Source: a virus
Lineage: Duplodnaviria; Caudoviricetes
Length of the DNA stretch: 64,000 nt
Strand: one strand, 5' to 3'
Virus record (IMG/VR): IMGVR_UViG_3300027996_003878
Shown: piece by piece, positions 4,315 to 63,361 of the stretch
Layout: each line of letters begins with the position of its first letter
Position numbering within the stretch: the first letter of the stretch is position 1
Notes under the pieces: model-generated
Databases searched by the model: none
The model's input: the letters and a program-made list of their open reading frames with translations, nothing else
What the model was told of the DNA's origin: nothing
Position numbers and translations under genes: made by a program

Positions 4315-4317
4315 TCT

Positions 4318-4761: not shown

Positions 4762-4892
4762 AGATCCTTATTTTTTTTGAGTTTTTACCTTCTTACCTTA
4801 ATAATTTGTGATTTATAAAAAACAATCACTCGATAAAAAATAATATTAAACAATTGTTATATTTAATATTGGGGCTTTAAATAAAAAAAATT

Positions 4893-6002
4893 ATGTTATA
4901 TAAAAATTTAATCTGGCTATTAATTATTATTTCTTTTGCTATAAATTGCGCTTCTGGGGGCGAAGAAGGTGAAAATCTTCAGTCAGAGAGCGCGGGAGGG
5001 AATTCGGGAGCAAGTGAGCCTGGGTTTTATTTTGAGGACCCGGATGAGGAGCCGCCTCCTTTGATATCAGAAGTTGACGATCTTTGCTTTGTAGAAAAGA
5101 TTGAAAGCACTTTAGCTAATTATGACATCATCATATTGCTTGATAGATCCGGCAGCATGGATTCCCCTTACAGATGGCAGGTTGTTATAAATTCTCTAAA
5201 TATTTTTTTTGAAAACAAGCAATCCGAAGGACTAAATATTGGATTGAACTTCTTCCCTCCAGAGCCCATATATGACGAAAATTTAATTATAAAATATGAA
5301 AAAGATCAATGTGATCCAAATAGCTATTCTCCAACTCATGTGCCACTTGACTCACTTCCACAGCATGTCAGCACTTTAAAAGATGCATTGCTTAATGCGT
5401 CACCTGAGGGAGACGCAACTCCCTTGTACGGAGCACTACAAGGCACCTATTTGGCATCAAAGACGCTTAAATCAGCTAGTACAAATGATTCTATTGTAAT
5501 TTTAGCAACAGATGGGATGCCTTCCGCATGCAATACTTCGTATTTAGAAATAACTAAACTTGCGGATGATGCTTATAAAAATGATAACATAAAAACGTAT
5601 GTGATTGGCCTATCAGGCTCCGACTTTTCACTTTTGAATGGAATTGCTTTTGTTGGAGGTACAGAGAACGCCTTTGATATCAGCTCTAACAGCACATTAT
5701 TTTTAGATAAAATGAAAGAAATAAGAAATAGCTTTAAGTGTCAATACAAAGTGTTAGATGATAATTTAGATCTTGCTAGCGGGATAGTTGAATATCACTC
5801 TAGCATTGGCTTTCCCGACTGGTCCATCCCACAAGTAGAAAAAAAATCTGATTGTCATAATACTATGGGTTGGTATTATGACATCAGCTCAAAGCCTTAT
5901 GCGATAGTGTTGTGCGATCAAGTTTGCGATTTAGTAACTAGCGATCCAAATCCTGAAATATACATTGGGTTTCAATGTTTAGAGAGCGATAATTTAAAAT
6001 AA
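4893..6002 (+). CDS. vWA-domain putative lipoprotein, myxobacterial type
   Basis: Lipobox-like AINC; MIDAS DRSGSM, TP and LATDG; KTYVIG; Cys-rich tail GWYYD...IVLCDQVC. Confidence 0.8.
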   Translation: MLYKNLIWLLIIISFAINCASGGEEGENLQSESAGGNSGASEPGFYFEDPDEEPPPLISEVDDLCFVEKIESTLANYDIIILLDRSGSMDSPYRWQVVINSLNIFFENKQSEGLNIGLNFFPPEPIYDENLIIKYEKDQCDPNSYSPTHVPLDSLPQHVSTLKDALLNASPEGDATPLYGALQGTYLASKTLKSASTNDSIVILATDGMPSACNTSYLEITKLADDAYKNDNIKTYVIGLSGSDFSLLNGIAFVGGTENAFDISSNSTLFLDKMKEIRNSFKCQYKVLDDNLDLASGIVEYHSSIGFPDWSIPQVEKKSDCHNTMGWYYDISSKPYAIVLCDQVCDLVTSDPNPEIYIGFQCLESDNLK

Positions 6003-6071
6003 AAGAAGAACAATCGATAGTCAGTACATTTATTTAAAATAAAGGCTTATAAGGATATTTTTATATCTATT

Positions 6072-8996
6072 TTGAAACACTTAAGTCTGATTTTTATTAT
6101 GAATGATTACAAAAAAGATAGCGCTGCGATTCAGTTAAAGAAAAAAATCTCTGCATCAAGAAAGCATGCGATAGAGCTTCATGCAGTAAGTCCCTATAAC
6201 TTTACAAAAGTTGCAGACATCATTGATAGCCTGTCAAAGGCATGGAATTGGATAACAGATCCAGAATTTAGATTGGATTTAAAAAAACTAAATGTAAAAA
6301 CTGTAAAAACTGAGAAGTTAATTAAAGAATTAAAAGATAAAACCAATACTTTACTCAGAGCAATTGATGCTGGCAATTTAGTCGGCTATGACAGCGCCCT
6401 TAAAGAGGTTAAACGTCTATCTACTGAACTAAACCGAGCGACATCTGAGGCCCAATCTATACAAAGAAATATGGGCGAAACGGTTATTGATGAAGTAGAG
6501 CAAAGGTACACAGAAACAAAACCAGTTGATAAGGCTGAACCAAAAAAACCAAAACCAAAGACAAAGCCAAAGACAACGCCAAAGACAAAGGCAAGAGCGC
6601 CCTCAGCGCCGCCTAAGGAGCGCGGGGAGGAGCGCGGGGAGGAGAACGGCGAGAGCATCACCCAAGAGCCAAAGAAGCCCTCAGAGGCGCCAGAGCCACC
6701 TGCAAAGACGGATAAGGAGTCTCCCCAAGAGGAGCAAGATAGCGCAAGTTTAATTCAAGCTATAGATCGTCAAATTGAATCGCTAAAAGAGCCAGAGATA
6801 GTACCTGAAACTAAGCAAAAAATAACAAGAAATTTAAGAAAGAAAATATTAGGACTTTATGCGTTAACTCAAAGAGGTGAGCGTGGCGAAGCTACGGCTG
6901 CTGAAAACGTTCTAAAGACTATCTTGCAAAAGATTAAAACAGAAGATCAGGACATACCACTTCTCGGAAGTTCGATTCCATCTTATGAAGACTTTTTAAA
7001 CCGAGCGCCTTTTTACTTATCGAAAATGCCCGCTCCAGAAAGTGATATCGAAGGAAAGCCTGAGTCCAAAGAAGAGGCCAAAAAGGAGCCGATCAAAAAA
7101 AGAAGAATCGTTCAGCTGCCCATGCCGCCGGAAGAAGCGACAAAAGAGCTTGAGCTGGTGGAAGAAAAAACAATTAAAGAGAACTCTAATGATGGTAATG
7201 TCGAGCTTATAGAGGATGCCTTGAGCAATATTAGTGTTGCCCAGCCGGAAGGTATGTTTGATAATTTTGCAAGCGGACTTAGCGGTAAAGGTTTAAAAGG
7301 AATTAGAGTTATTGGAAATAAACTTATAGGAGACGCAGAAGATCCAAATACGAAAGATCCTATGAGTAGAGGTAAAGATTTAGATGATTACGAAGATTTT
7401 TCAAACAAATCAAGCGGCATTGGATTTGACTACATACTATACTCACCGAAAGGCAACGTAAATAAATTCAATGTTGTGCCATTTTCAAAAAAAGCTATAA
7501 AAATATTGGGAGAGCTGAAAGGACTGGAGAAACTTCAACCATCGGCGGCTTTGGTCATTGAAAAAGAGTTACAGAAAAAAAGCCCAACAAAAGTATCAGA
7601 AAAACCGTCTCAAGAAAAAGAAACCGCTTTTGATGAAGGCAATTACGAAGAACCCGAAGAAGTTGTATTAAAAGACAAAAGTAAAAAAGAAAAAGCTCTT
7701 ACAGAAAAGATAAAGCAAGAATTTGATGACAAAGGCTTAGATGTTCCAGATTGGTTGCTAGATTCTATGAGAATGAGTTCAAAAGTCACAAAGCCATACT
7801 TCCCAACGACTTATAACTTAAATTATTTGATTTTTAAAGCTGAAAAAGATTTTTTTACAGATAAAATACAGAGTGAATTTGATGTCAACAATGCAGACAT
7901 GCCGTCACTGCTTGAACCACTTAACCCAGGCACATCCGTTAACACCAAGGCTAAAGAAAGCGAGTCAGAGGACACTCAAGACGAAGATTCGGCGGAAGAG
8001 TTAAGTGAGGGAAAAGTAAGAAAACAAATGAGAGGCTTGTATTTTAGCAAAGGTAAGACAAAGCAAGATTTTTCAACTACAAAAGAGGATATCAGAAAAC
8101 TTCGTGATGTCGGCATCACTGATGCTGACATTTATAATTTTAAAAAAATACCAGCAAAATCATCGCCTGCATCGGTTCCATATGCAAAAAGATCGGGTGA
8201 AATATATAAATGGGTAGCAAAAACAAAAGCAACAATGTCGGATGCGGAACTTGAGCTAATATTAGATAATGTAAAATCAGAAATATTAAAAGATTCAGAA
8301 AAATATCCAGAATTTAAAGGCCTTAATAGAGAAGCTTTAGATAAGCAGGGCTGGCTGTCTCATTATATAATTAAATCTATAAGAGAAGATCTTCCGATTC
8401 ATTGGAAAGGTAAAGATCAAAACATTGTAAGCGCACAATGGATTTATGGTCTAGCTAATATCTTTTTAAAATTGGCAATGCCCAGATTAAAAGTTGCAGG
8501 CGACAAAAATAAGGCGTCCGAAGCCGATTATATGTATCACGTTACCTACTACAAGGATCTTGGATCCATAGCAGACTCGGGATTGAACCCAGGGGGCGGC
8601 TCCGCTATGGGAAAGGGAGGGCACTCCGGACATAGCCGGGGGCGCACCTTTATGACCGAAAAGGACGGCCTTTCCTTCTGGTTCGGCAGAATGGAAGAAC
8701 ACGCGGAGGCCGACAGCGACGATCCGCTGGGCGAAGGATACGTTCCGGTCTCACTACGGTTCCCGAAGCCCAAGGGCCTGGAGGAGGACGAGGCCGGAAC
8801 CTCCGACGCAATGGCAGAATCTTACTTTCTCGAAGGTTCGGTTCCTCCTGGCGAGGTCGAACTCTGGGATGGTAATTCCTGGATCGCGCTAACCTCCTGG
8901 GAGAGCGTGAACCCGGAGGAATCCTTCGACGTGGACGAGTACGACGGGGAGAAATGGCACATCTTCAAGGGTGATAACCCTCTTTATCCCGGTTAG
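6072..8996 (+). CDS. Large low-complexity protein with C-terminal ART-like module (likely start ATG 6099)
   Basis: 974-aa ORF with K/E/P-rich linkers; C-terminal YHVTYYKDLGSIADSGLNP preceded by IYGLANIFLKLA. Confidence 0.65.
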   Translation: MKHLSLIFIMNDYKKDSAAIQLKKKISASRKHAIELHAVSPYNFTKVADIIDSLSKAWNWITDPEFRLDLKKLNVKTVKTEKLIKELKDKTNTLLRAIDAGNLVGYDSALKEVKRLSTELNRATSEAQSIQRNMGETVIDEVEQRYTETKPVDKAEPKKPKPKTKPKTTPKTKARAPSAPPKERGEERGEENGESITQEPKKPSEAPEPPAKTDKESPQEEQDSASLIQAIDRQIESLKEPEIVPETKQKITRNLRKKILGLYALTQRGERGEATAAENVLKTILQKIKTEDQDIPLLGSSIPSYEDFLNRAPFYLSKMPAPESDIEGKPESKEEAKKEPIKKRRIVQLPMPPEEATKELELVEEKTIKENSNDGNVELIEDALSNISVAQPEGMFDNFASGLSGKGLKGIRVIGNKLIGDAEDPNTKDPMSRGKDLDDYEDFSNKSSGIGFDYILYSPKGNVNKFNVVPFSKKAIKILGELKGLEKLQPSAALVIEKELQKKSPTKVSEKPSQEKETAFDEGNYEEPEEVVLKDKSKKEKALTEKIKQEFDDKGLDVPDWLLDSMRMSSKVTKPYFPTTYNLNYLIFKAEKDFFTDKIQSEFDVNNADMPSLLEPLNPGTSVNTKAKESESEDTQDEDSAEELSEGKVRKQMRGLYFSKGKTKQDFSTTKEDIRKLRDVGITDADIYNFKKIPAKSSPASVPYAKRSGEIYKWVAKTKATMSDAELELILDNVKSEILKDSEKYPEFKGLNREALDKQGWLSHYIIKSIREDLPIHWKGKDQNIVSAQWIYGLANIFLKLAMPRLKVAGDKNKASEADYMYHVTYYKDLGSIADSGLNPGGGSAMGKGGHSGHSRGRTFMTEKDGLSFWFGRMEEHAEADSDDPLGEGYVPVSLRFPKPKGLEEDEAGTSDAMAESYFLEGSVPPGEVELWDGNSWIALTSWESVNPEESFDVDEYDGEKWHIFKGDNPLYPG
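6555..6652 (+). repeat. In-frame 12-bp tandem repeats in a linker
   Basis: CCAAAGACAA(A/C)G x3 at 6555-6590; GGAGCGCGGGGA x2 plus a degenerate copy at 6617-6652. Confidence 0.8.
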
Positions 8997-9300: not shown

Positions 9301-10173
9301 TCATTGGCAATTTTTTGCGTCACTGTACCCACGATCAATCATTTTACTAATATCACTAGAGTCAAAATTAAACAGATCGTCATTTAACGAAACGCTTGGC
9401 CTAATAATTCGTATTTTTATATCGCTATACTTACTTACAACTAAATCATTGTCCAAGCCAATTGAATGAAAGTCAGCTGCCATAATTCTATCGGTCATTA
9501 AGTCTAAGCTACGATAAGCAATATCTAAAACTGACCACCATCTCCCAGAAGGACGCCACTCTTTTGTATAAGAATTACCGGGAGAGCATGAAATTACATC
9601 AATATATTTGGCCCCAAGCCTTATTGCCTGACCAATTGGCGTACTAACTTTTATTCCACCATCAATCCACCACTTACCATTGATTATTTTCGGCTTCATA
9701 ATAACAGGCAAGCTTGCTGAAGCTACCGCCCATTCATCAAGATTAAAATCATTTTCACTAGAAAAATATTTTTCTCCAGTATTTAGACAAACAGCTCCAA
9801 TTCTAACATTTTTATTAGAATTTCTTATTTTCTCTATATCAAAGTCTGACTTTATTAACTTTATTAGCGGGCTTGAGTCAAATATAGACCATTTCCATAG
9901 CGCAGATATTTTTCCAAAAGGCTTCCAACCGCAAAATATTCTGGAAACTGTCAAGTCATGCCAAATATTATATAAATTATCATAAGCTTCAGAAGAATCA
10001 CCCAAGGGAATTGCGGCAAGCTTTAAAGCATTTAAAGCGCCAACGCTCACACCACATAAAATGTCGTAATCTAAGCCGTCCTCTTTAAGCCATTTTTTTA
10101 AAACGCCAACTTGGTAGGCGCCCTTTATACCTCCACCAGAAAGGACCAATGCTCGCTTGTTAGATTCTTTCAT
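9301..10173 (-). CDS. Patatin-like phospholipase
   Basis: GGGIKG oxyanion motif, GVSVG nucleophile and DGG catalytic Asp. Confidence 0.9.
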   Translation of the reverse strand: MKESNKRALVLSGGGIKGAYQVGVLKKWLKEDGLDYDILCGVSVGALNALKLAAIPLGDSSEAYDNLYNIWHDLTVSRIFCGWKPFGKISALWKWSIFDSSPLIKLIKSDFDIEKIRNSNKNVRIGAVCLNTGEKYFSSENDFNLDEWAVASASLPVIMKPKIINGKWWIDGGIKVSTPIGQAIRLGAKYIDVISCSPGNSYTKEWRPSGRWWSVLDIAYRSLDLMTDRIMAADFHSIGLDNDLVVSKYSDIKIRIIRPSVSLNDDLFNFDSSDISKMIDRGYSDAKNCQ

Positions 10174-10236
10174 TAAAGTAAAAAAAATGATGCATATAAC
10201 TATATAGCATCATTTTAATTTTTTTTACTTTAAAGT

Positions 10237-10551
10237 TTATTTCGCGTCTGTCATCTGCGCCACTGTCTTTTTAAATTCATCGTTGTCTCTCAGCCACTTG
10301 TAAACTTTTCTTAAAATTTCTGCATTTTTATTATCAGATGTGCTTAAATTTGAAGCCGACTCAGGCTCACAATTATCGCACCAATGCATGATAAATATTT
10401 TAAATTCAAAAAGGTTAGAAGAATCTCTGGTTGCCGGCATATTGCATACCATGCACTTGGGCTTGATCTTTTCTAAATTGATCAACAGCTCATTTTCATA
10501 TGATTCGTTTTTTTTTGCCAGTTCTAGTATTGATTCAAGTTTCTTTAACAT
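10237..10551 (-). CDS. Hypothetical protein with CxxC...CxxC zinc finger
   Basis: CMVC and CDNC. Confidence 0.6.
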   Translation of the reverse strand: MLKKLESILELAKKNESYENELLINLEKIKPKCMVCNMPATRDSSNLFEFKIFIMHWCDNCEPESASNLSTSDNKNAEILRKVYKWLRDNDEFKKTVAQMTDAK

Positions 10552-10694
10552 TAATTAAATTTAATTTTATTATTAGAATAATATTGAATTTAATTAATCT
10601 ATAAAGAAATAACTTTAGTGAATCTTAAATATCTATACTTATAATTCCAAAGCCCAGCGCAGTTATATCATTTTCCGCCGTCAATCACCAACTT

Positions 10695-10889
10695 TCATTG
10701 TTCACCATCATCAATCTCGCCATCAATGCTAACAAGAAACTCTTTGCCGTCTTGTCCCCAAACCATCTCACACTCGTTATTATGGAGATGTTGTGCAAGT
10801 TCTTCGTGTTCCTTTTCAAGATATTCCACGATTGCTTGTTTTAACTCATCTGCCGTGAGGTAGATTGTTTTGAGTGATGTAGTTTTCAT
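10695..10889 (-). CDS. Hypothetical protein
   Basis: 64-aa ORF with plausible start and acidic composition. Confidence 0.55.
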   Translation of the reverse strand: MKTTSLKTIYLTADELKQAIVEYLEKEHEELAQHLHNNECEMVWGQDGKEFLVSIDGEIDDGEQ

Positions 10890-10970
10890 TCTTTATTCTC
10901 CAACCAACTTTGTAATGTGCTCGCAAAACTCTAAAATCATTTCAGTTCTTTTTTGAGTTCTTTGATTTTG

Positions 10971-11448
10971 TCAGCCATTTTCTTTCTCCTCACAGGTACA
11001 TTCTTGGTCTGGATAACCGGCATCGTGATGAGCACAGTTATACCACTTTGAGTTATCAAATTGATAATGCCCGTCAAGAACTTTCATTTCTAAATGCAGG
11101 TCTTCATAGTTCTCAACATAACCACCGCTAGTTCGTCCATCCAGTCGGTTCAGAAGGTTGATTGATGCTTCGCCTGCCCATAGGTCATCTTCGTTCTTCT
11201 GAGGAAAAGCATTACCTTCAACAAAATCAATAATAATGCTGTCTAAATCTCTAATCTCATCTGCTGCTCTGCGACAAAGAGATTTCAAGCGAATGATTTC
11301 TTTTTTTAACTCTCGCTGATAATCAAGTCGCTCTTGTGGAACACCAGTATCAAGAAAATTATGAACTGATAACTCTCGTTGTAGTTCTGTATTCTCTTTT
11401 TTTGAGTTCTTCTACTTGCTTTTTGAGTTCTTTGATTTCGTTAGTCAT
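10971..11448 (-). pseudogene. Coiled-coil protein interrupted by a +1 frameshift in an A7 run (or a sequencing error)
   Basis: ATG at 11448 gives MTNEIKELKKQVEELKK; removing one A at 11397-11403 continues as ENTELQRELSVHNF...IIRLKSLCRRAADE into ORF 10971..11288. Confidence 0.6.
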
Positions 11449-14689: not shown

Positions 14690-15043
14690 ATGGCTGTAAA
14701 AAAGCATAAAAATATGATCTCCCTTACAGCAAAAGCTATTAATAAAATCAAAGAAATAGCCAAAGAAGAAGATATAAATGATCTGTGTCTAAGAATGAAA
14801 ATAATAGGCGGCGGATGTGCTGGATTTTCATATGATGTTTTTTTTGAACATTTAGAGAACGTTACAGATTTTGACGAGACGTTTAAAAATGAAGATATAA
14901 CTATTTGCATTGACCCATTAAGTTTTCAATATTTAAGTGGTTGTGAGATGGATTTTGTTACATCAAACTTCGGAGCAGGATTTAAATTTAAAAACCCAAA
15001 TGTGACATCTACATGCGGATGCGGGTCTTCAGTTTCATTTTAA
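14690..15043 (+). CDS. iscA: IscA/HesB-family Fe-S cluster assembly protein
   Basis: GGGCAGFSY and C-terminal NPNVTSTCGCGSS. Confidence 0.92.
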   Translation: MAVKKHKNMISLTAKAINKIKEIAKEEDINDLCLRMKIIGGGCAGFSYDVFFEHLENVTDFDETFKNEDITICIDPLSFQYLSGCEMDFVTSNFGAGFKFKNPNVTSTCGCGSSVSF

Positions 15044-15262: not shown

Positions 15263-16498
15263 ATGGAAGATCGTTGGACAGATATCGTGCGCCCGTATTC
15301 TTTGGAAGATGTTAAAAGAATACGAGGCAGTATAAGAATAGACCAAACTTGGGCAAAATTAGCTTCAGAAAAACTTTGGCGTTTGATGAAGCAAAACGCC
15401 CCAGTTCGCGCACTTGGCGCAATGACTGGAAACCAAGCGATACAGCAAGTGCGCGCTGGCCTTAAGGCAATTTATGTAAGTGGCTGGCAGACGGCAGCGG
15501 ATGCAAATAGTGGTCGTCAGATGTACCCAGATCAAAGCTTATATCCTGTAAATGCTGTCCCATTGCTGATTGAAAGAATTAATAATGCACTTCAAAGATC
15601 AGACGAAATAGACGTCGCAGAAGAAAAATCAGACATTGATTGGCTTGTGCCACTTGTGGCGGATGCAGAGGCCGGATTCGGCGGTGTATTAAATGCATAC
15701 GAATTAATGAAATCAATGATTAAAGCGGGCGCTGCGGGCGTTCACTTTGAAGATCAATTAAGCAGCGAAAAAAAATGTGGTCATCTAAATTCCAAAACTT
15801 TAGTGCCTACGTCTAGCTTCATTAGAACCCTAACTGCTGCAAGATTAGCCGCAGATGTTTTAGAGGTTCCTACGGTTTTGATTGCAAGAACAGATGCAGA
15901 AAGCGCTGGATTTATAACTAGCGACGTAGACCCCCGCGATCATGATTTTATTGACAAATCAGAAAGAACTCCTGAAGGTTTTTTTAAGTTATGTGGAGAT
16001 CCTATGGAAAGATGCATACGAAGGGGACTTGCTTACGCACCCTACTCAGATCTAATTTGGATGGAAACATCCACTCCTAACCTAGGGCAGGCTAAAAAAT
16101 TTGCAGATGCAATTCATGAAAAATACCCAAATAAAAAATTAGCATACAATTGCAGTCCAAGCTTTCATTGGAAGAAATTCTTATCCTCCAACGAAATGAA
16201 AGACTTTCAAACGGAACTTGGAAAATTAAATTATACTTTTCAATTTATAACTTTAGCAGGTTTTCATGCCTTAAACTTTAGCATGTTTGAGTTAAGTCAG
16301 AATTATAAAAATAGCGAAATGTTGGGGTATTCTTCTTTGCAGGAAAAAGAATTTGAAGCCTATTCGCAGGGATACACCGCAATAAGGCACCAACATGAAG
16401 TTGGCGTTTCCTATTTTGATGAAGTTCGCAAGGTTATAAATGGTGGAGATGATAGCATGTCTGCTCTTACCGGCAGCACCGAAGACGACCAATTTTAA
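15263..16498 (+). CDS. aceA: Isocitrate lyase
   Basis: [14 protein letters not shown] catalytic motif; [31 protein letters not shown]. Confidence 0.97.
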
Positions 16499-16513
16499 TA
16501 GGAAACAATTAAT

Positions 16514-17287
16514 ATGAAAGTTTTAAGAAAAGGCGCTAAAGGTCCAGGCGTAAAGGCTTGGCAAATTTTTTTACGAGGGCAAGGCTACCATATTATAGCT
16601 GATGCTGACTTTGGAAAAAAGACAGTGTCAGCCACTAAGGCTTTTCAAAAAAAGAAAAGACTTGTCGCTGACGGTGTTGTTGGCAATGCAACCTACGCCG
16701 TTGCAATGCTATTGGGGTTCGAGGTCATAAAAGATGATGAGTCTGACATTTACAGCGCCAACTGGCCTCCAAAGCCAGATTTTAAGCCAATAGTTGGAAC
16801 CGCTGCACGTCAAAGAATTTTTGGAAAATTCAATTTCAAGCGGATGAGAGTTAAAGGCAACCCAGAGGCGATTAGAATATTAGATAATTGGGTTGAAGAA
16901 AATATAGTTTATGTAAAAATCCCACAATTAATAGGCGTCAAAGGCACTTATAGAAGAAAAACATTCGCATTTCATAAGTTAGTCGCAGAGCCTGTTAAAG
17001 ATTTATTTCAGGCCTGGGATGATGAGGGATTGTCTGATCTTATTCTTTCGTGGGGAGGTTCTTTCGTACCTAGATTTATAAGAGGATCAAACACAAGCTT
17101 AAGCAATCACAGCTTTGGAAGTGCGTTTGATATAAATGTTCCATGGAATTATTTAGGAGCACGGCCGGCTTTAGTCGGTAAAAAGGGATCAGTAAGAAAG
17201 CTTGTGCCAATTGCCAATGAATTAGGATTCTATTGGGGCGGTCATTTCCGACGCAAAGATGGAATGCACTTTGAGTTCTGCGGATAA
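16514..17287 (+). CDS. Endolysin: peptidoglycan-binding domain plus M15 peptidase
   Basis: LRKGAKG...DADFG...FQ...ADGVVG binding domain; SNHSFGSAFDIN and DGMHFE Zn motifs. Confidence 0.88.
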   Translation: MKVLRKGAKGPGVKAWQIFLRGQGYHIIADADFGKKTVSATKAFQKKKRLVADGVVGNATYAVAMLLGFEVIKDDESDIYSANWPPKPDFKPIVGTAARQRIFGKFNFKRMRVKGNPEAIRILDNWVEENIVYVKIPQLIGVKGTYRRKTFAFHKLVAEPVKDLFQAWDDEGLSDLILSWGGSFVPRFIRGSNTSLSNHSFGSAFDINVPWNYLGARPALVGKKGSVRKLVPIANELGFYWGGHFRRKDGMHFEFCG

Positions 17288-17324
17288 AAACTAAAAAATT
17301 CAATAAAAAAAAGCTACAAATTAA

Positions 17325-18920
17325 ATGAATAAAATATTATTTCCAGAATTAAAAAACGAAAACGAGAAAAAAATACTTTCTCCAGAAGCGCTTAACTTTC
17401 TAAAAGATTTATTTAATGAGTTTAATGGCAAAATAAAAAATTTATTAAAGCTAAGAGTTCGAGATGCTAAATTAATTTCAGATGGTCAGCTGCCAAATTT
17501 TCTAGAAGAGACAGAGGGTATTAGAAATTCCACTTGGCAAATCTCTTCGGTACCAAAAGACCTTCAAGATCGTAGAGTAGAAATTACAGGTCCGGTTGGA
17601 AGAAAAATCATAATTAACGCCCTTAACTCTGGCGCTAATGTTTTCATGGCTGATTTTGAAGATTCAAACTCACCGACCTGGAAAAACACTTTAGATGGAC
17701 AGATAAATCTCTTTGATGCTGTAAGAGAAGAAATAAGTTTATTTGATAAAGTAAAAAATAAAGAATATAAATTAAATAAAGATCACGCAACCTTGATGGT
17801 AAGACCTCGTGGCCTTCACTTACTTGAAAAAAATATTCTCATAGAAGACGAACCAATCCACGGCTCTTTAGTTGATTTTGGCTTGTACTTTTTTCACAAC
17901 GCACAAGAGCTTTTAGACAAAGGCTCCGGGCCTTACTTTTACTTACCAAAAATAGAGCACTTTAGAGAAGCTGCTCTATGGAATGAAGTATTTAATTTCT
18001 CACAAGATAAGTTAAATATTAAAAGAGGTACAATAAAAGCTACTGTTTTAATCGAAACTTTACCAGCTGCATTTCAGATGAATGAAATATTGTATCAGCT
18101 TAAAGATCATTCCGCCGGGCTGAACTGTGGAAGATGGGATTACATTTTTAGTTTTATAAAAACGCTAAAAGATCACGAGCAATTTACCCTTCCAAATCGA
18201 AGTGATTTGACAATGGATAAGCATTTTATGAGATCTTATACGCAATTGTTGATTCAAACATGTCACAAAAGAAAAGCACACGCTATGGGCGGCATGTCTG
18301 CATTTATACCAATTAAAAACGATGAAATGGCAAATAACGCTGCATTAGATGCCGTGAAAAAAGACAAAATGCGCGAAGTAAAAGACGGTCATGATGGAAC
18401 ATGGGTTGCGCACCCTGGATTAGTTGAAATGACAAGAAAAATCTTTGACGAGTACATGCCGACAAAGAATCAAATCAATAATAAAAGAGAAGACGTAAGC
18501 ATAACTGCAAATGATTTACTTCAAACCCCTCAAGGCGAGAGAACTGAAGATGATATTAGAAAAAATATAAACGTGTCATTGCAGTATATAAATTCCTGGC
18601 TATCAGGGACTGGCTGCGTTCCCATTAACAATTTAATGGAAGACGCAGCGACCGTTGAAATATCTAGAGCGTTAATATGGCAATGGATAAAATTTAAGGT
18701 AAAAACCGACAGCGGTATAATTGTAAGTAAAGAAAAAATTCAAAAATTACTGCTTGACGAAGTCGCCAAATTAAAAACAGATAAAAATATCAAAGAAAAC
18801 AACGAGACATTTAAAAAAGCAATTGAAATATTCTCAAATGTTTCAATGAATACAAGTAATTTTAATAATTTCCTAACAACCGATGCTTATGAAGAGCTAA
18901 TCAAAATATCCCAAACATGA
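17325..18920 (+). CDS. aceB: Malate synthase A
   Basis: RRVEITGP, VFMADFED, GLNCGRWDYIFS, DGTWVAHP, LMEDAAT. Confidence 0.97.
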   Translation: MNKILFPELKNENEKKILSPEALNFLKDLFNEFNGKIKNLLKLRVRDAKLISDGQLPNFLEETEGIRNSTWQISSVPKDLQDRRVEITGPVGRKIIINALNSGANVFMADFEDSNSPTWKNTLDGQINLFDAVREEISLFDKVKNKEYKLNKDHATLMVRPRGLHLLEKNILIEDEPIHGSLVDFGLYFFHNAQELLDKGSGPYFYLPKIEHFREAALWNEVFNFSQDKLNIKRGTIKATVLIETLPAAFQMNEILYQLKDHSAGLNCGRWDYIFSFIKTLKDHEQFTLPNRSDLTMDKHFMRSYTQLLIQTCHKRKAHAMGGMSAFIPIKNDEMANNAALDAVKKDKMREVKDGHDGTWVAHPGLVEMTRKIFDEYMPTKNQINNKREDVSITANDLLQTPQGERTEDDIRKNINVSLQYINSWLSGTGCVPINNLMEDAATVEISRALIWQWIKFKVKTDSGIIVSKEKIQKLLLDEVAKLKTDKNIKENNETFKKAIEIFSNVSMNTSNFNNFLTTDAYEELIKISQT

Positions 18921-19249
18921 AAAAAGAAAAAAAACAATTAGAAGAATCTTTATACGAGCTACAGCAAAATGTTCCATTTAACTTCCTTCTATTACTTTGT
19001 GTCATATTAATGATTCTTGGTAATATAATCAGCGGAGCCATGACAGCTGGTTTGTTTATCTGGAACGCTGTTTTATTGTACTTTTCACTTAATTTCTTTA
19101 TAAATTCAATAAAGTTAAGGGCGAAAAATTTACAGGAAATTTTAGAGTCCCAAGAGGCATTTGAATTTCATGACTATGAAGAATCATCGCCTAAAAAGAA
19201 AGAGACAGGGGAGGAGGGGAGAGCAGAGAAAGATGACTCAGAGAAATGA
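18917..19249 (+). CDS. Two-TM membrane protein
   Basis: Two hydrophobic segments and a charged tail; start overlaps the aceB stop. Confidence 0.6.
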   Translation: MKKEKKQLEESLYELQQNVPFNFLLLLCVILMILGNIISGAMTAGLFIWNAVLLYFSLNFFINSIKLRAKNLQEILESQEAFEFHDYEESSPKKKETGEEGRAEKDDSEK

Positions 19250-20262
19250 AGATAATTTATAGTGCAGGCAACAGAGTCGGGTCAAGCTCGCAATTATTTA
19301 GATTCTTTAATAAAGTATCAAATGAGCATAATATAAAAATAGCTGCATATATAAATTCTAGTGATCATTTTTCGCATATTAATTGGACATTAGACTCTTT
19401 TTATAACAAATATTCTGACAAGAAAGTATCCAAATTAAAAAAGATTATTGAATCAAAACATATGCCAAGAATAAGTGTGAAAGAAGCAATAAATTTCTTG
19501 GAGGATGTTGATCGGTTTGAGCCTGATCTGATAATTTCGGATGGCGAGCAAATATCCGCATTGATAGCGGCCTCATTAGGGGTAAGGCTTTGGTACTGTA
19601 GCCCTTTGCTTTTGCTAGTCAACATGAATTGCAATGAAATAGAAACAAAATATAGACACTCATTAGAAAATACAAAAAGAATAATTTCAGAACTACCAGA
19701 TGCCGAAAGAAACTTTATATACTCTCCATTTGAACTAGTAAAAGAAAGATTTTCAACAAAAGAAAATTATGAATGGATTACCCCTTACCATCATTCAGTT
19801 GAAAGTTTAGAAAAAGATGAAACGTCTTATTTAGCTGTTGTTCCTGACAGCCAACGGCAGCTTAAAATTCAAAAAACATTAAAATGCTCATTAGACAACT
19901 TTTCATTATATAATAATAGCTTCGAGTCAAGTAAAGAAAAAAAATTAAAATATACAAAGCAACTATCAGTTGCAAGCTGGGTGTTCACGACGGGCGAGAC
20001 CAGCTATCTTAGTGATGCTATTTATAATAATGTAGATAAGATGTGTATATCGCCATGTATGAAAGATTCAGAATCACTATTGAACGCATCATTGGTAAGA
20101 GCCTTTGGTTTAGGCTATGAGGCGGGTCAAATAGAGCTTTTAGATAAGTATTCAGTGTGCGAAATACAGCGATCTTTAGAGCGTGGTTATAATCATTTAA
20201 ATACAAACAAATTAAGAGTCCAAAATACTTTAGACGAAAAGGTTAAAGAAATATGCATATAG
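19246..20262 (+). CDS. GT-B fold glycosyltransferase-like protein (MJ1255-like), degenerate N-terminal motif
   Basis: MKIIY start, PDLIISDGEQ, TTGETSYLSDAIY, ESLLNA; the usual GxGH is replaced by GSSSQ. Confidence 0.6.
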   Translation: MKIIYSAGNRVGSSSQLFRFFNKVSNEHNIKIAAYINSSDHFSHINWTLDSFYNKYSDKKVSKLKKIIESKHMPRISVKEAINFLEDVDRFEPDLIISDGEQISALIAASLGVRLWYCSPLLLLVNMNCNEIETKYRHSLENTKRIISELPDAERNFIYSPFELVKERFSTKENYEWITPYHHSVESLEKDETSYLAVVPDSQRQLKIQKTLKCSLDNFSLYNNSFESSKEKKLKYTKQLSVASWVFTTGETSYLSDAIYNNVDKMCISPCMKDSESLLNASLVRAFGLGYEAGQIELLDKYSVCEIQRSLERGYNHLNTNKLRVQNTLDEKVKEICI

Positions 20263-20918
20263 CATTTGATATAGGTAACGTTTTCTTTGAGTTAGAATTG
20301 GGCAATTTTACAGAGGAATTTGACGCTTACTTTAAAGGTAGATATGATTCAATTTTATTCTTAAAAGAACTGCAAGGTCCTCAAGATACCGGCTTAACAA
20401 ATATAAGAAGAAACTTAGAGATATTAATACATAAAATTTATCCTAAAGAAAGCTCAAGCTCAATAAACGAATCAATTGACAAGCTGTGCGGGGCTTGGTG
20501 TAATATTTTGAAACCATCAGAGATAATGTTAGAATTCTCTGAAGAATTAAAAAATGATGGGATTAAGGTTGCATTGCTAAGCAACGTTGGGCAAGAGCAT
20601 GCAGAATATTTAAGTAACAATTATTCCAATCTTTTTAATAATGCCACCTTGCATTTAAGCTATGAAGTTGGGGCTAGGAAGCCCAGCGATTTATACTTCA
20701 AAAGCTTTTTGTCGGATCATCCTGATTTTAAAAATTGCATATACTTAGATGATTTAAAAGAAAATGTAGATAAAGGATTAAAATATAAATTTGACGCTCG
20801 TGTGTTTAATATTAACGATTTTAAAAGCGCTGAAAATAAATTAAAAGAATATATTAAAAAAATCAAAGAAGATATAAAAGTCTCCAGAAATATGGCTGGA
20901 TGTGATTTTTATATATAA
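20253..20918 (+). CDS. HAD-family hydrolase
   Basis: FDIGNV motif I, LLSN, RKP, YLDD. Confidence 0.85.
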   Translation: MHIAFDIGNVFFELELGNFTEEFDAYFKGRYDSILFLKELQGPQDTGLTNIRRNLEILIHKIYPKESSSSINESIDKLCGAWCNILKPSEIMLEFSEELKNDGIKVALLSNVGQEHAEYLSNNYSNLFNNATLHLSYEVGARKPSDLYFKSFLSDHPDFKNCIYLDDLKENVDKGLKYKFDARVFNINDFKSAENKLKEYIKKIKEDIKVSRNMAGCDFYI

Positions 20919-21185: not shown

Positions 21186-21692
21186 ATGCTAATGGCGTGC
21201 CTAACAAAAAAAAGGTGTCAAATGATGAATCCATATTTTACAAACCCAATAGCCAGCCTCTTTGATGAATTAACCAATATTAGCAATAATTGGGATACAA
21301 AAGATGCAAGCGCTTATGCTAATAATATATTAAATTCAAAGTCACTAACGGTAAGGTTTAGTAGCGTAGAGGATAATGATTATTATTATATAAGAGTTTT
21401 GTCTCCTGGATTTAAAGAGGATGAATTAAATATCTCAATTCAGCAAAATCGCCTCACGGTTACCGCAAAGAAGGGTGAAAAAGTAGTAAATAACTACAAT
21501 CAGCTGTTTTGCTCTGAAGTAAATGGCTTTGAAAAGTCATTTTTAATTCCGCAAAACATTGACACTGCAAAAATAACAGCAGAATATAGATCTGGCATTC
21601 TTGTTGTTTCAATTCCAAAGCAAAACATTAATAAAGAAGAGCCGCAAAATATAAAAATATCATTTGGCGATAAAGCTGCAATTCAAAATTAG
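21186..21692 (+). CDS. Hsp20/alpha-crystallin small heat-shock protein
   Basis: PGFKEDELNISI, FEKSFLIP, AEYRSGILVVSIPK. Confidence 0.9.
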   Translation: MLMACLTKKRCQMMNPYFTNPIASLFDELTNISNNWDTKDASAYANNILNSKSLTVRFSSVEDNDYYYIRVLSPGFKEDELNISIQQNRLTVTAKKGEKVVNNYNQLFCSEVNGFEKSFLIPQNIDTAKITAEYRSGILVVSIPKQNINKEEPQNIKISFGDKAAIQN

Positions 21693-21761: not shown

Positions 21762-22805
21762 TTGGATGAAAGTATGAACGTTACCAAAGGCCTTACATTT
21801 GATGATGTCTTGCTTGTACCGAAACACAGCAAAATATCTAGTAGAAAATTAATTAATTTAGATTTAAATTTAAGCAATGATGTAAAATTAAATATTCCTG
21901 TCGTTTCAGCTAATATGAAAAATGTTACTGAGGCAGAAATGGCAACGGCAATATCCAATCAAGGCGGCCTTGCACTGCTGCATCGCTTTTGCTCTATAGA
22001 AAAGCAAATTAAAATGTTCACAGAATCAACTCAAGGGGGACAGCAGAACGTAGGATGCTCTGTTGGTGTTGGCAAGGAAGATTCTGAAAAGGCTGATTTG
22101 CTTTATGATAAGGGCTGCAAGATTTTTTGTGTCGATGTAGCTCACGGAGATCATGAAAATTGCTGCCGCACAACTAATTACCTAGCAAATAAATTTGACG
22201 ATTGTCTTATAATCTCAGGGAACGTTTGCACTGGTGAGGGGGCTAAAAGGCTTTTCAATTCGGGTGCTAAAGTGATTAAGGTCGGAGTGGGGCCTGGAAG
22301 TCTTTGCACTACACGGATTGACACCGGCAACGGTTATCCTCAGCTTACAGCCCTAGAGAGCGTTTTTAATGAGAGTAGATCTTGGAATTATGCCTTAAAG
22401 CATGAGAGAAATAGAAAATTCAAGATTATAGCTGATGGCGGCATTAGGAATGGCGGCGACATTATTAAAGCTTTGTGCTTTTCAGATTCAGTAATGCTTG
22501 GCAGCTTGCTTGCAGGAACTGACGAAGCGCCCGGCAACATAATTAAATTAGACGGCAAAACTTACAAAGAGTATGCGGGCAGCAGTACTCATAAAAATAA
22601 TTACATTGAAGGTGTAAAAGCAATAGTTCCAATAAAAGGCCCTGTTACGAGCATAATTACAAGGTTAATGGAAGGATTGAGGAGCGGCCTTTCCTATCAG
22701 GGTTGCACCGATCTAGAGGAGCTTAAAGTACATCCAGAATTTGTATCCATCAGCAACGCCGGCTTAATCGAAAGCCGGCCGCACGATGTTATAATATCTT
22801 CTTAA
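21762..22805 (+). CDS. IMP dehydrogenase/GMP reductase family protein (no CBS domain, short flap)
   Basis: LTFDDVLLVP, VDVAHG, GVGPGSLCTTR, IIADGGIR, GLRSGLSYQG. Confidence 0.9.
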   Translation: MDESMNVTKGLTFDDVLLVPKHSKISSRKLINLDLNLSNDVKLNIPVVSANMKNVTEAEMATAISNQGGLALLHRFCSIEKQIKMFTESTQGGQQNVGCSVGVGKEDSEKADLLYDKGCKIFCVDVAHGDHENCCRTTNYLANKFDDCLIISGNVCTGEGAKRLFNSGAKVIKVGVGPGSLCTTRIDTGNGYPQLTALESVFNESRSWNYALKHERNRKFKIIADGGIRNGGDIIKALCFSDSVMLGSLLAGTDEAPGNIIKLDGKTYKEYAGSSTHKNNYIEGVKAIVPIKGPVTSIITRLMEGLRSGLSYQGCTDLEELKVHPEFVSISNAGLIESRPHDVIISS

Positions 22806-24238: not shown

Positions 24239-24922
24239 ATGTTAAGTTTTATAAAATTTATTCAAATTCCTGTAATTTCAACATCATTTCTAGTGCTGGC
24301 AAATGCTGGCAATTTAAAAAAACCAACATGTCCAGCCGATATGGTGGCTGTAAATAACAATACATGCATAGACAAATACGAATGGCCAAATAAAAAGGGA
24401 GAGCTGCCCTTAGTTGGGGCTAGCGGCTTGCCAGAGCCACGAGACATTAAGAATAAAGAGACTTGGGATGCAGACTCTTTTTGCAAAAGTGTTGGAAAAA
24501 GAGTTTGCTGGGCCGATGAGTGGGTTAAGGCTTGTAAAGGAAAAAACAACTCGCCCTATCCATGGGGAAGTCAAGTTCCAAAGTACATTCCAGGTGAGTT
24601 TGACTCGCATTTGGCTTGTAACTTTGGAAAGCAATATATTGGACCAGATGAGTATAAGATATACCTGAGGGATAAGAAGGAGATGGCTAGGCTTGATCTC
24701 CGAGAGCCTAGTGGCGAGCGCAATCAGTGCAAAAGCGAAGTAGGCGCCTTTGATATGGTAGGAAATGTCGAAGAGTGGGTTCGATGTCGCAGTAAAACTG
24801 GCTGGTGCTTAGCGGGAAGGTATTGGTCTGAATTGTACAGATGCGATCAGCTAATTGGCTCACACGCACCAAAATGGCACTATTATCAATCAGGATTTAG
24901 GTGCTGCAAAGATTTGAATTAA
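24239..24922 (+). CDS. Secreted formylglycine-generating-enzyme (SUMF1/FGE-sulfatase)-domain protein
   Basis: CPADMV, CIDKYE, EWVKACKG, YPWG, FDMVGNVEEW, GFRCC. Confidence 0.85.
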   Translation: MLSFIKFIQIPVISTSFLVLANAGNLKKPTCPADMVAVNNNTCIDKYEWPNKKGELPLVGASGLPEPRDIKNKETWDADSFCKSVGKRVCWADEWVKACKGKNNSPYPWGSQVPKYIPGEFDSHLACNFGKQYIGPDEYKIYLRDKKEMARLDLREPSGERNQCKSEVGAFDMVGNVEEWVRCRSKTGWCLAGRYWSELYRCDQLIGSHAPKWHYYQSGFRCCKDLN

Positions 24923-24959: not shown

Positions 24960-25577
24960 ATGTTTAAAGAAGCCCTTATAATTACAATGATATCTGTACT
25001 TTCACGAGAAATGCCGGATATTAACACTAAAAAAAGAACACAGCGTCGCGAATCCGTAGTAACACTAAGCAAGTTAGCCTACAAGGTGGCAGAGCGTGAG
25101 GCCCTTATTAGCAGAAAAGTTGATTCTGCGTTGCTTTTGGCAACTATGTACCGCGAAAGCAGGCTTAATATCAAAACCCCTGATGGTGACTGTAAAGCTA
25201 CAGGCTGGGGAAGTTCGCTGAGAAAAAGCTGTCCCGCAAAAGGCGTTATGCAAATAATGTCAACTAATCGTAAAATATTTAATAAACTACCTCAATCGAA
25301 ATTAGACCCTAAAATACCAAATAAAATTTCGATTAAAATGCTTTATGAACCTGAGTTGAACATAAGGTTAGGCTATGTTGCTTTGCACTATTGGAAAGAC
25401 ACATGTGGCGGCCCTCCTGGAGTTTGGATGACTGCATACCGTCGCGGCAAATGCTCTAGAAAATTTAAAATTAATCGAATTGATAAAGAGGCAAAAATTC
25501 GATGCAAAATAGCAACTATTATTCTTAAAAAGACAAATTCTTTACCAAAGAACTGGAAATGTTCAAGTGAGAATTAA
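24960..25577 (+). CDS. Lytic transglycosylase (SLT) domain protein
   Basis: MYRES catalytic Glu, AKGVMQI, LYEPELNIRLG, AYRRG. Confidence 0.8.
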   Translation: MFKEALIITMISVLSREMPDINTKKRTQRRESVVTLSKLAYKVAEREALISRKVDSALLLATMYRESRLNIKTPDGDCKATGWGSSLRKSCPAKGVMQIMSTNRKIFNKLPQSKLDPKIPNKISIKMLYEPELNIRLGYVALHYWKDTCGGPPGVWMTAYRRGKCSRKFKINRIDKEAKIRCKIATIILKKTNSLPKNWKCSSEN

Positions 25578-25625: not shown

Positions 25626-25656
25626 TATGGTTATAATATTAAAATATAAAAGTGAT

Positions 25657-26154
25657 ATGAAAAAAATTCACAAAATAGCTCAATCATTTAAAGTCTCATT
25701 AGGCAGCCATGAATGCCTTTCAGACTTATTAGCATGCATGCGCGCCGTGGCTGACCTACACCAAACTCACCACTGGCAGACTAGAGGTAGTAGCTATTAT
25801 GGCGATCACTTGTTATTTGAAAGAATATACAATGAAAGCCAAAGCTTTGTTGATCAACTTGCAGAAAAAGCAATTGGCTTAGGCAATGCTGATTTGGTAG
25901 ATTTGTGCAAACAAAGCGAACTTAGACATAAAAAAATATTAGAGATGTGTGGAGAAACTTCAAATGTTTCTCCGCAAGAGATGGTCGAGCGATCTCTCAA
26001 GGCAGAAAAAAAATTAATTGAAATGACAAAGAACTCAATCAGCTCCCTTGAGAGCTGCAATCAATTGACACATGGATTAAGCAACCTACTAGAAGGAATT
26101 GCTGACGCACATGAAGGTTTTGTATATTTGTTAAAACAACGTGAAGAGGGTTAG
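25657..26154 (+). CDS. Dps/ferritin-like protein with N-terminal shared peptide
   Basis: HQTHHW...YGDHLLFERIY...DQLAEK...HEGFVYLL; likely start MKKIHKIAQSF. Confidence 0.8.
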   Translation: MKKIHKIAQSFKVSLGSHECLSDLLACMRAVADLHQTHHWQTRGSSYYGDHLLFERIYNESQSFVDQLAEKAIGLGNADLVDLCKQSELRHKKILEMCGETSNVSPQEMVERSLKAEKKLIEMTKNSISSLESCNQLTHGLSNLLEGIADAHEGFVYLLKQREEG

Positions 26155-26339: not shown

Positions 26340-26846
26340 TCAATTAATACTTTTGCCAAATATAGATGTTGGATTAATTAAGCTTCCACCAGAGCGCACT
26401 TCAAAGTGCAAATGAGGAGATGTCCCTTTTGCGTTTCCTGTGTCTCCAACATAACCAATAACATCATTCATGCCAACCTCATCGCCAACATTAAATTTAC
26501 CAAATGAGTCCAAGTGCATATACGATGAGCGAACGTCATTGTTGTCTTGGATAATGATCATTTTTCCAGATTTACTCCCTGTCATTTTTTTAATTATTTT
26601 GCCAGGTCCTAATGGGTAGACAGGAGTACCGCGAGGGGCGAACAGATCTATCCCCCTGTGCCCGGTTGGATGTCGAGGATCAGTTGCCATATTTGGAGAA
26701 TAATCTCCAGGGTACTTGTGCTCACCAGCCCCTCTAGTGGGGTCTTGGTAGCGCTCAGCTTGCCCCTCATCAGAGCCGGAAGAAGGGAGAGTTACGCCAA
26801 GCAAATCAGCTATTGCATTAACTAGATCTTGAGTATCATTCATCAC
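26340..26846 (-). CDS. M23-family peptidase
   Basis: HRGIDL, YMHL, VGDTGNA, PHLHFE. Confidence 0.92.
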   Translation of the reverse strand: MMNDTQDLVNAIADLLGVTLPSSGSDEGQAERYQDPTRGAGEHKYPGDYSPNMATDPRHPTGHRGIDLFAPRGTPVYPLGPGKIIKKMTGSKSGKMIIIQDNNDVRSSYMHLDSFGKFNVGDEVGMNDVIGYVGDTGNAKGTSPHLHFEVRSGGSLINPTSIFGKSIN

Positions 26847-27982: not shown

Positions 27983-28762
27983 ATGACAATTTTAGATAAC
28001 GATCAAGCAATTTATTATCTTGCTAAGTGGCTGATCGAAAGAAAAAATGAGGTAAATAAAAATGGATTTCTGATTGAGTTAGCCAACAGAAACAGCTTAT
28101 TGGCTGCAAAAATTTGTGAAAAGACAAAATCGAAAACCTACCTAGTAATAAATAAAAACAATAAAGATAAAGATAAAAAATTAAAATTAATTAAAGAAAA
28201 TATAAAATTAAAAAATTTTAAAATAATTCAAATCGATGATGCAAAGGCATTAGGCGGCTCAAAAGACTTGCTTGCCAGTGCAGGCGTTAACTTAAATGAA
28301 AATCGTTTAAAATATTTTTTAAAGCCTGTAATTTCCTTTATAGCGAAGGATGAAAATTTGCTTATTATAAATTGCCTTAGCCGAAATCACTACAGATTAA
28401 TTAGAGATTATAAAAAAGACCTTGATGTTCACGGTGATTTATTATTATTTTCAGATATATATCAAAGTGAATTGGATGAATTGTATTTCTATGCAACTAA
28501 AGAGAGCAATAATATTAATGAGTGTTTTTTCAATTTAAATATCACACATAGTGAAGTTGAGTGGTTAGACAGAAAAGATGTAAAAACAAATGTAGTAACT
28601 AATTGTACAGATCCAGCAAAATCAAGAGAGTGGCCGTCATTTACAGGTCGCCAAAAGCAAATAATATCCTACATTCATCAAGTTGAAAAATCATCAAGGC
28701 ACAGGCAAATATTCAACGTACCAGAATGTAAGATAAGAAATAAAGAAGGGCTCATAAAATGA
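27983..28762 (+). CDS. Hypothetical protein
   Basis: 259-aa ORF in operon context. Confidence 0.65.
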   Translation: MTILDNDQAIYYLAKWLIERKNEVNKNGFLIELANRNSLLAAKICEKTKSKTYLVINKNNKDKDKKLKLIKENIKLKNFKIIQIDDAKALGGSKDLLASAGVNLNENRLKYFLKPVISFIAKDENLLIINCLSRNHYRLIRDYKKDLDVHGDLLLFSDIYQSELDELYFYATKESNNINECFFNLNITHSEVEWLDRKDVKTNVVTNCTDPAKSREWPSFTGRQKQIISYIHQVEKSSRHRQIFNVPECKIRNKEGLIK

Positions 28763-55679: not shown

Positions 55680-55684
55680 CGCAC

Positions 55685-57148: not shown

Positions 57149-57156
57149 AAAACTAC

Positions 57157-57194
57157 AAACTCACGGTTGCTGAATAACTAGCAACCGTGAGTTT
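57157..57194 (-). terminator. Hairpin downstream of the tubulin gene
   Basis: AAACTCACGGTTGCT...AGCAACCGTGAGTTT. Confidence 0.65.
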
Positions 57195-59745: not shown

Positions 59746-59760
59746 ATTAATTAAATTAAA

Positions 59761-60693: not shown

Positions 60694-60712
60694 CGTTGCT
60701 TCCTTTAAATAA

Positions 60713-63353: not shown

Positions 63354-63361
63354 TTTTATAT

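Follow-up and report, generated by a model that had tools for sequence, protein, structure and literature searches.

Isocitrate lyase and malate synthase genes flanking an endolysin-type gene in a jumbo phage known from metagenomes

Gene organization of the locus

The stretch of DNA analyzed here, referred to below as the window, comprises 64,000 nucleotides (nt) of the IMG/VR virus record IMGVR_UViG_3300027996_003878 (Caudoviricetes). Its interval 15263-18920 holds the genes for the two enzymes of the glyoxylate bypass, aceA for isocitrate lyase (ICL) and aceB for malate synthase (MS). Based on the list of open reading frames (ORFs) and on Pfam searches, three plus-strand genes fill this interval: aceA (15263-16498, 411 amino acids), an endolysin-type peptidoglycan hydrolase gene (16514-17287, 257 amino acids) and aceB (17325-18920, 531 amino acids). 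Only 15 nt separate aceA from the lysin gene and 37 nt the lysin gene from aceB. A preliminary description of this DNA, made from the letters alone, had presented the interval as an aceA-aceB pair; both genes were correctly named there and the lysin gene between them was overlooked.

The encoded enzymes

The aceA product matched the Pfam family ICL (PF00463) with an E value of 5.7e-101 and passed the equivalog thresholds of two NCBIfam models, NF011645 (671.3 bits, cut-off 562) and TIGR01346 (531.1 bits, cut-off 275.9). Methylisocitrate-lyase models gave scores far under threshold (100 against a cut-off of 354). The protein aligned end to end with ICLs of solved structure (6lrp, E 1.6e-167), with the KKCGH signature and the other conserved motifs present, and the KKCGH residues (K170-H174) together with the metal- and substrate-binding positions were invariant in 14 of 14 phage ICLs. 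At the N-terminus it lacks about 15-25 residues relative to the solved cellular ICLs; the closest metagenomic relatives measure 409-416 amino acids and the named cellular matches 424-440. These comparisons confirm ORF 15263-16498 as a predicted isocitrate lyase (EC 4.1.3.1) that looks catalytically competent.

The aceB product contains all three MS domains, MS_N, the TIM-barrel and MS_C (PF20656, PF01274 and PF20659). It scored 756.1 bits on the malate synthase A model TIGR01344 (cut-off 594.5), which places it above the equivalog threshold, and 43 bits on malate synthase G models. It could be aligned to the malate synthases A of Bacillus anthracis (3cux, E 3e-187) and Escherichia coli (3cuz). 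The motifs RPRG (R162), IETL (E244), RWDY (D272) and MEDAAT (D440) are conserved relative to 3cux, and these four residues, which we take to be the equivalents of E. coli R166, E250, D278 and D447, were invariant in 12 of 12 phage MS. ORF 17325-18920 is in this way confirmed as a predicted, competent-looking malate synthase A (EC 2.3.3.9). The preliminary description had read both enzymes as full-length, with an intact KKCGH in ICL and the main motifs in MS, and the equivalog scores and invariant residues agree with it. To our knowledge, no phage ICL or MS has been characterized biochemically.

The product of the intervening gene carries an N-terminal PG_binding_1 and a C-terminal Peptidase_M15_4 domain (E 3e-11 and E 7e-15, respectively) and resembles endolysin families in PHROGs, the best being phrog_2649 (E 5.6e-22). 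Its translation shows an H-x6-D motif and a C-terminal MHFE, the zinc-ligand pattern (His-Asp-His) of LAS peptidases, and matches to solved structures were limited to the peptidoglycan-binding domain. It is thus a predicted LAS-type M15 endolysin. On the simplest view, the lysin gene has no functional tie to its neighbors and was inserted between an aceA and an aceB that were already paired.

Phage origin and soundness of the assembly

The exact ICL protein was found on at least 15 contigs from Joint Genome Institute (JGI), European Nucleotide Archive (ENA) and Logan samples. In these contigs an IscA-like gene, aceA, the lysin gene and aceB follow each other in constant order, in at least six samples and with 99.93-100% nucleotide identity to the window. 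We walked outward from the window by exact-protein look-ups across overlapping contigs. A 120-kb JGI contig combines aceA and aceB with homologues of baseplate wedge proteins (phrog_6, E 1.7e-32; phrog_2669, E 8e-10) and encodes, past the window end, a large glycosyltransferase cluster and fibre-sized proteins of 980, 2212 and 1079 amino acids. A 295,897-bp ENA contig (20x coverage) is 99.9-100% identical to the window at positions 55580-64000 and to the loci reached by the walk, the overlaps being read outside aceA and aceB, and encodes an 819-amino acid homologue of tail sheath proteins (phrog_2839, E 1.2e-13). Among the genes of the window itself are those for a TubZ-like tubulin, a helicase, a DnaB together with an IstB-like loader and the intein-bearing large subunit of a ribonucleotide reductase (RNR). 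Because baseplate and sheath genes are contiguous with the window, because the window holds these replication genes and because codon usage in aceA and aceB is typical of it, we conclude that the genome is that of a contractile-tailed (myovirus-type) jumbo phage of about 296 kb known from metagenomes, and that the two genes are not contamination. The contig had been described as phage-like, and the contiguous sheath and baseplate genes bear this out; the walk ended short of the terminase and major capsid genes. Close relatives of the phage come from marine sediment assemblies.

It is extremely improbable that aceA and aceB entered the assembly from contaminating cellular DNA or through an assembly error, or that they are passenger DNA in decay. 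The window ICL and MS are 57-64% identical to cellular enzymes and PHROGs v4 has a family for neither, and beyond this nothing positive speaks for such an origin. Identity to cellular ICLs tops out at 64%. At least six samples gave the same gene order in independent assemblies, which also disposes of a cellular or chimeric contig. The JGI contig joins the locus to the baseplate genes, and overlaps of 99.9-100% identity connect the locus to the sheath gene of the ENA contig. Moreover, the composition of the genes is ameliorated and the cassette is kept in a diverged relative with nonsynonymous far below synonymous divergence, as detailed in the following section.

Long residence and selection

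The GC content at third codon positions (GC3) is 0.325 for aceA and 0.288 for aceB, both within 0.5 standard deviations (SD) of the ORFs of the window (0.309 +/- 0.041, mean and SD). The relative synonymous codon usage (RSCU) of the two genes correlates with that of the rest of the window at 0.81 (aceA) and 0.82 (aceB), which equals the median.

A 45.6-kb contig, L130 (ENA ERZ25069837), carries the same IscA-aceA-lysin-aceB cassette with the same flanks. Its gene order runs from a patatin gene to NUDIX, IscA, aceA, lysin and aceB, and on to genes for HSP20, an IMP dehydrogenase (IMPDH)-family protein, ThyA, an FGE-sulfatase domain and an SLT domain. Between the window and L130, amino acid identity is 83% for ICL, the highest of the block, 70% for the lysin, which is kept at the same place, 68% for MS and 33-78% for the neighbors. 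The proportion of nonsynonymous differences (pN) rises from 0.11 in ICL to 0.19 in the lysin and 0.21 in MS; that of synonymous differences (pS) ranges from 0.69 to 0.82 (ICL 0.75, MS 0.82), that is, synonymous sites are saturated. Saturated pS combined with low pN therefore indicates strong purifying selection on the cassette within this phage lineage, as judged from the two sequences. The preliminary view that the AT-rich codon usage of the pair, similar to that of its neighbors, reflects long residence is in keeping with the typical GC3 and RSCU values and with the retention of the cassette in L130.

Evolution of the phage enzymes

Phylogenetic trees were obtained by quick searches, with SH-aLRT (Shimodaira-Hasegawa-like approximate likelihood ratio test) support of 91-94, and attraction between AT-rich sequences is possible in them. 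The MS of the window and of L130 (P0122) fell in a clade of 44 rows (SH-aLRT 91) made up of 40 phage rows, three contigs labelled as giant viruses and one metagenome protein; an earlier tree with fewer rows had joined all of its 31 viral ones in a single clade (SH-aLRT 94). The sister of the window and L130 was contig L149 (support 94), where aceA is followed directly by aceB. Some viral MS were placed outside the main clade: L139 and L154 with Myxococcota, L135 with Planococcus, and a deep giant-virus clade. Viral MS were therefore captured more than once. The nearest cellular MS belong to Bacteroidota, Ignavibacteria, Calditrichota and Marinimicrobia, whose branching order the tree did not resolve.

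The ICL tree was poorly resolved. There, the window and L130 nest with two further contigs, L129 and L127, and with unnamed metagenome proteins. A single clade of all phage ICLs except that of contig L006 had the higher likelihood and was not rejected by the approximately unbiased (AU) test (p 0.63), and contig L149/L202, the sister of the window in the MS tree, also belongs to the wider ICL clade of the window. For these reasons we dropped separate origins of the window ICL and MS, which a first ICL tree had suggested by setting the window clade apart from the contigs with aceB-aceA pairs. The ICL of L006 (IMGVR_UViG_3300032322_002561, 236 kb; gene at 10001-11215) lies with strong support inside the Oxalobacteraceae (Massilia-type) ICLs and seems to have been acquired independently, and later, from a host among the betaproteobacteria. 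The comparison with cellular aceA and aceB, proposed as a check in the preliminary description, placed aceB in a largely phage-specific clade and left ICL poorly resolved. No consistent host signal emerged from the trees: ICL was nearest to metagenome-assembled genomes of Myxococcota and Proteobacteria, MS to Bacteroidota, Ignavibacteria and Calditrichota.

L127 (GCA_012974985.1) derives from a pooled assembly of marine sediment (PMC8319310), the one sample origin that a literature search with the sample accessions brought up. L127 and L129 group with the window in the ICL clade (72-73% identity) and likewise encode IscA, a protein of 975 amino acids with a dockerin and the glycosyltransferase cluster. 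Unlike the window, they have neither MS nor lysin beside ICL. Their ICL gene is preceded by two IscA genes, NifU (L129 only) and thioredoxin, and in L127 it is followed directly by the glycosyltransferase cluster. The simplest history that we infer from these arrangements would be an ancestral aceA-aceB pair into which the lysin gene was inserted in the branch of the window and L130, MS having been lost or moved in the branch of L127 and L129.

Prevalence in phages

The preliminary description had supposed that the pair is not among the commonly reported phage genes. Viral aceA and aceB were nevertheless reported in 2013 from Pacific Ocean viromes (PMC4053976), an aceBA operon was described in 2017 by Nishimura et al. 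in the complete 179-kb Tara Oceans viral genome TARA_ERS478052_N000008 (PMC5332604), and a 2025 preprint on the Huge Phage Genome Collection counted 98 ICL and 22 MS genes in phages of at least 200 kb (10.1101/2025.02.27.640493). In IMG/VR, profile-based scans yielded 65 loci with MS and, for ICL, at least 551 stretches. At 58 of the 65 MS loci an ICL gene lies within 4 kb on the same strand, so the survey that was to gauge prevalence speaks against rarity. The order is aceB-aceA in 53 of these 58 pairs and aceA-aceB in five. The arrangement of the window, in which a 774-nt lysin gene separates aceA from aceB, is thus a minority variant of the directly adjacent aceB-aceA pair that leaves the content of the pair unchanged.

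The picture is different among named phages. PHROGs v4 contains no family for ICL and none for MS, and the 3.7-kb stretch had no counterpart among GenBank phages when compared by megablast. In IMG/VR, an exact 38-mer of aceA was absent. A tblastn search of GenBank phages returned one genuine case, that of the Kyanoviridae phage C48C1 (OQ984149.1), with ICL only. Its full-length ICL (5992-7233), annotated as a hypothetical protein, is 52.5% identical to that of the window and stands between a NifU-like gene 3 kb upstream and a peroxiredoxin gene 3 kb downstream; malate synthase was not found in the record. Other matches to GenBank phages were discounted, namely Salmonella genome contigs, unannotated records of 1.5-4.5 kb named as Salmonella or Escherichia phages, and contigs of Acinetobacter phage MD-2021a (32% identity). 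The shunt pair is therefore rare among phage isolates and recurrent in metagenomic large phages, and the pair in the window counts as a genuine auxiliary metabolic module whose kind had been reported from marine and huge phages before.

Neighboring genes and transcription signals

A gene for an IscA/ErpA-like A-type Fe-S carrier of 117 amino acids (14690-15043, plus strand) ends 219 nt upstream of aceA, as the preliminary description had it. The protein matched Pfam Fe-S_biosyn (E 5e-19) and NCBIfam TIGR00049 (107.6 bits, cut-off 58.8), and its 112 bits on the ErpA model are slightly below the cut-off of 117. L130 has it at the same position with 65% amino acid identity. Downstream, an ORF of 110 amino acids (18917-19249, plus strand) shares its first 4 nt (ATGA) with the end of aceB. 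This ORF gave no match in Pfam or NCBIfam; its counterpart in L130 (40% amino acid identity) lies downstream of aceB with a methyltransferase gene between. It opens a packed co-directional run that continues with a glycosyltransferase gene (19246-20262, plus strand) and ends with the ORF 20253-20918 (plus strand). Neither aceK nor an iclR regulator gene adjoins the aceA/aceB pair. No conserved element was recognized upstream of aceA in the comparison with L130. Terminator-like sites numbered 11, against 5.3 +/- 2.5 in shuffled sequences, and none between aceA, the lysin gene and aceB was convincing.

Proposed role and alternatives

The best explanation overall, to which we assign a probability of about 0.8, is that aceA and aceB constitute an auxiliary module by which the jumbo phage runs a glyoxylate bypass during infection. 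A bypass run by the phage and feeding biosynthesis is the natural reading because the genome is that of a phage, the enzymes look competent, and the genes have been resident for long and are under purifying selection. The phage ICL would cleave isocitrate to succinate and glyoxylate, and the phage MS would condense glyoxylate with acetyl-CoA to give malate, a route that the infected cell could run independently of host control of the AceK/IclR type. The tricarboxylic acid cycle's two CO2-releasing, NADH-producing steps would be skipped, with two carbons saved per turn and less NADH formed. C2 units would give net C4 acids, which could pass to oxaloacetate and aspartate for nucleotides and to phosphoenolpyruvate for the sugar-nucleotide and glycosyltransferase enzymes of the phage. 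The selected benefit might be the saving of carbon or a lower load of respiration, iron and reactive oxygen species (ROS). Such a bypass would fit the heavy investment of this phage in nucleotides and sugar nucleotides; ThyA, dihydrofolate reductase (DHFR), RNR, the IMPDH-family protein and sugar-nucleotide enzymes are all encoded in the window. The preliminary description had proposed that host lipid or acetate carbon is rerouted into biosynthesis in starved or developing cells. A bypass feeding biosynthesis agrees with the reading given here, whereas a lipid source found no support, nor did starved or developing cells.

Several observations weigh against this explanation. ICL exceeds MS by about 8:1 in IMG/VR (at least 551 against 65), and MS was not seen within 8 kb of ICL in L127 nor in the approximately 0.75 kb downstream of it in L129. 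Because these two contigs lack a nearby MS and ICL outnumbers MS, ICL may serve a role that needs no phage MS. As to aceA, lysin and aceB being one transcription unit, sigma-70 promoter-like matches numbered 23 against 26.9 in shuffled sequence, and a weak terminator-like hairpin with a T-run (16544-16571, plus strand) lies 30 nt into the lysin ORF, close behind the aceA stop, where it could attenuate read-through from aceA or be there by chance. The thought can be carried further by taking ICL as the primary enzyme, for instance for the supply of succinate or glyoxylate or as a methylisocitrate lyase, and MS as merely removing toxic glyoxylate. The excess of ICL over MS, seen also in huge phages (98 against 22; 10.1101/2025.02.27.640493), the sequence of L127 and L129 read beside ICL, which contains no MS, and the higher identity of ICL (83%) than of MS (68%) between the window and L130 are consistent with this. 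It is unlikely all the same, as the methylisocitrate-lyase scores are far too low, where MS is present ICL is almost always its neighbor in the same orientation (58 of 65 loci) and MS is under clear purifying selection; because of the last two points, aceA and aceB would act as a functional pair in this lineage. Likewise, a route from lipids, in which a patatin frees host fatty acids and the shunt turns their acetyl-CoA into biosynthetic carbon, is very unlikely. A patatin-like phospholipase gene (9301-10173, minus strand) does lie 5 kb from aceA, as described before, and at the same relative position in L130 (69% amino acid identity), yet its retention says nothing specific about a link because the whole 17-kb block is syntenic with L130. 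Besides, patatin and aceA are encoded on opposite strands, at least nine ORFs apart, the NCBIfam resemblances of the patatin are generic (52 bits on the cGAMP-activated lipase of CBASS, the cyclic oligonucleotide-based antiphage signalling system, with a cut-off of 200, and RssA far below cut-off), and no gene for an acyl-CoA synthetase, beta-oxidation or acetate activation was seen in the window. The lipid link drawn earlier was thus built on this generic gene and is not upheld; the patatin could as well serve lysis, defence or counter-defence as lipid use.

A different benefit, iron sparing and relief from oxidative stress, is a tentative possibility. The bypass would send less NADH into the iron-rich respiratory chain, alongside genes for Fe-S assembly and Dps-type proteins. 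An IscA gene is directly upstream of aceA in the window and in L130, the closest ICL relatives (L127 and L129) place ICL after the IscA, NifU and thioredoxin genes listed above, and the ICL of C48C1 is 3 kb from both NifU and peroxiredoxin genes. About 10 of the 65 IMG/VR loci have IscA or NifU no more than 4 kb from aceB, and the window has genes for a Dps-like ferritin (25627-26154, plus strand), HSP20 (21186-21692, plus strand) and a thioredoxin-like protein (28759-29229, plus strand). Iron limitation is also known as an inducer of the glyoxylate shunt among marine heterotrophs (PMC6618146). Conversely, these 10 are only about 15% of the aceB loci, IscA or NifU was found at none of 45 loci with ICL only, and the association may represent only about three independent lineages. 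RNR adjoins more frequently (26 of 65 loci) and fits a supply of nucleotides equally well. A broader proposal joins these strands: the aceA and aceB of phages would be ancient lineages specific to viruses, exchanged among large phages that are not related and not acquired from hosts again and again. In this phage family they would act with phage-encoded Fe-S assembly, Dps and redoxin genes in an iron-sparing, ROS-limiting rewiring of the infected cell, and would form with the lysin gene one co-regulated aceA-lysin-aceB unit, the lysin gene not being there by accident. Taken as a whole it is speculative and unlikely. Returning to the phage-run bypass, if the enzymes are active, central carbon flow in infected cells would be turned from CO2 release towards retention, which would bear on estimates of carbon and iron cycling for virus-infected marine bacteria.

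Other genes of the window

The Dps-like, HSP20 and thioredoxin-like genes share a co-directional region with aceA and aceB and compose a set of stress and iron cargo. The IMPDH-family protein (347 amino acids; 21762-22805, plus strand) lacks the CBS/Bateman region and passed no equivalog cut-off. Its scores on models of IMP dehydrogenase and GMP reductase were similar, so it may work in either direction of purine metabolism. Thus, of the earlier GuaB/ThyA/DHFR/RNR assignments, the last three are present and GuaB becomes a CBS-less IMPDH/GMP-reductase-family protein below the cut-offs. The RNR large subunit (47191-50886, minus strand; Pfam Intein_splicing and LAGLIDADG_3) owes its 1231 amino acids to an intein with a LAGLIDADG homing-endonuclease domain; the NifU gene of L129 also carries an intein (3704-5215 of that contig). 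A type I methionyl aminopeptidase (TIGR00500, 205.8 bits, cut-off 171.35) is encoded at 45381-46181 (minus strand).

The TubZ/PhuZ-like tubulin gene (57392-58795, minus strand) matched Pfam Tubulin and faintly TubZ_C. Beside it are four consecutive genes for NAD-dependent sugar epimerases/dehydratases (58792-62632) with a sulfotransferase-like gene, and a cluster of about 10 glycosyltransferase genes begins just past the window end. Genes with FGE-sulfatase (24239-24922), SLT (24960-25577), matrixin-type Peptidase_M10 (37628-38275) and VWA (4893-6002) domains lie on the plus strand, a Peptidase_M23 gene (26340-26846) lies on the minus strand, and a tRNA-Gly(GCC) gene occupies 38325-38398. Several cell-wall hydrolases are encoded in the window, that of the M15 gene included.

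Comparison with known systems

The enzyme families and catalytic residues of the window pair are those of the E. coli aceBAK operon (AceA 1igw, AceB 3cuz), and Salmonella aceA and aceB are about 51-56% identical to those of the window. Compared with bacterial aceBAK, the order of the two genes is reversed, a lysin gene is inserted, aceK and iclR do not adjoin, the ICL N-terminus is shorter and the setting is viral. As in the window, both genes are on the same strand in the Tara Oceans genome TARA_ERS478052_N000008 and in the IMG/VR contigs with aceBA, and the Tara genome is also rich in polysaccharide and sugar-nucleotide genes. The MS of the IMG/VR contigs belongs to the same largely phage-only clade as that of the window, and RNR and DnaB genes are often nearby. 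The window differs from the IMG/VR contigs in sequence, with protein identities of 52-60% for MS and 57-65% for ICL. The Tara-type phages were described as T4-like, in contrast to the phage of the window, which has about 296 kb and a TubZ-like tubulin. This genome adds no new category; it adds a well-supported example, assembled from many samples, of a conserved minority order with a diverged relative that shows purifying selection. Concerning the huge phages (10.1101/2025.02.27.640493), where neither the intervening gene nor the gene order is named, the arrangement in the window fits the class in which ICL and MS are one gene apart.

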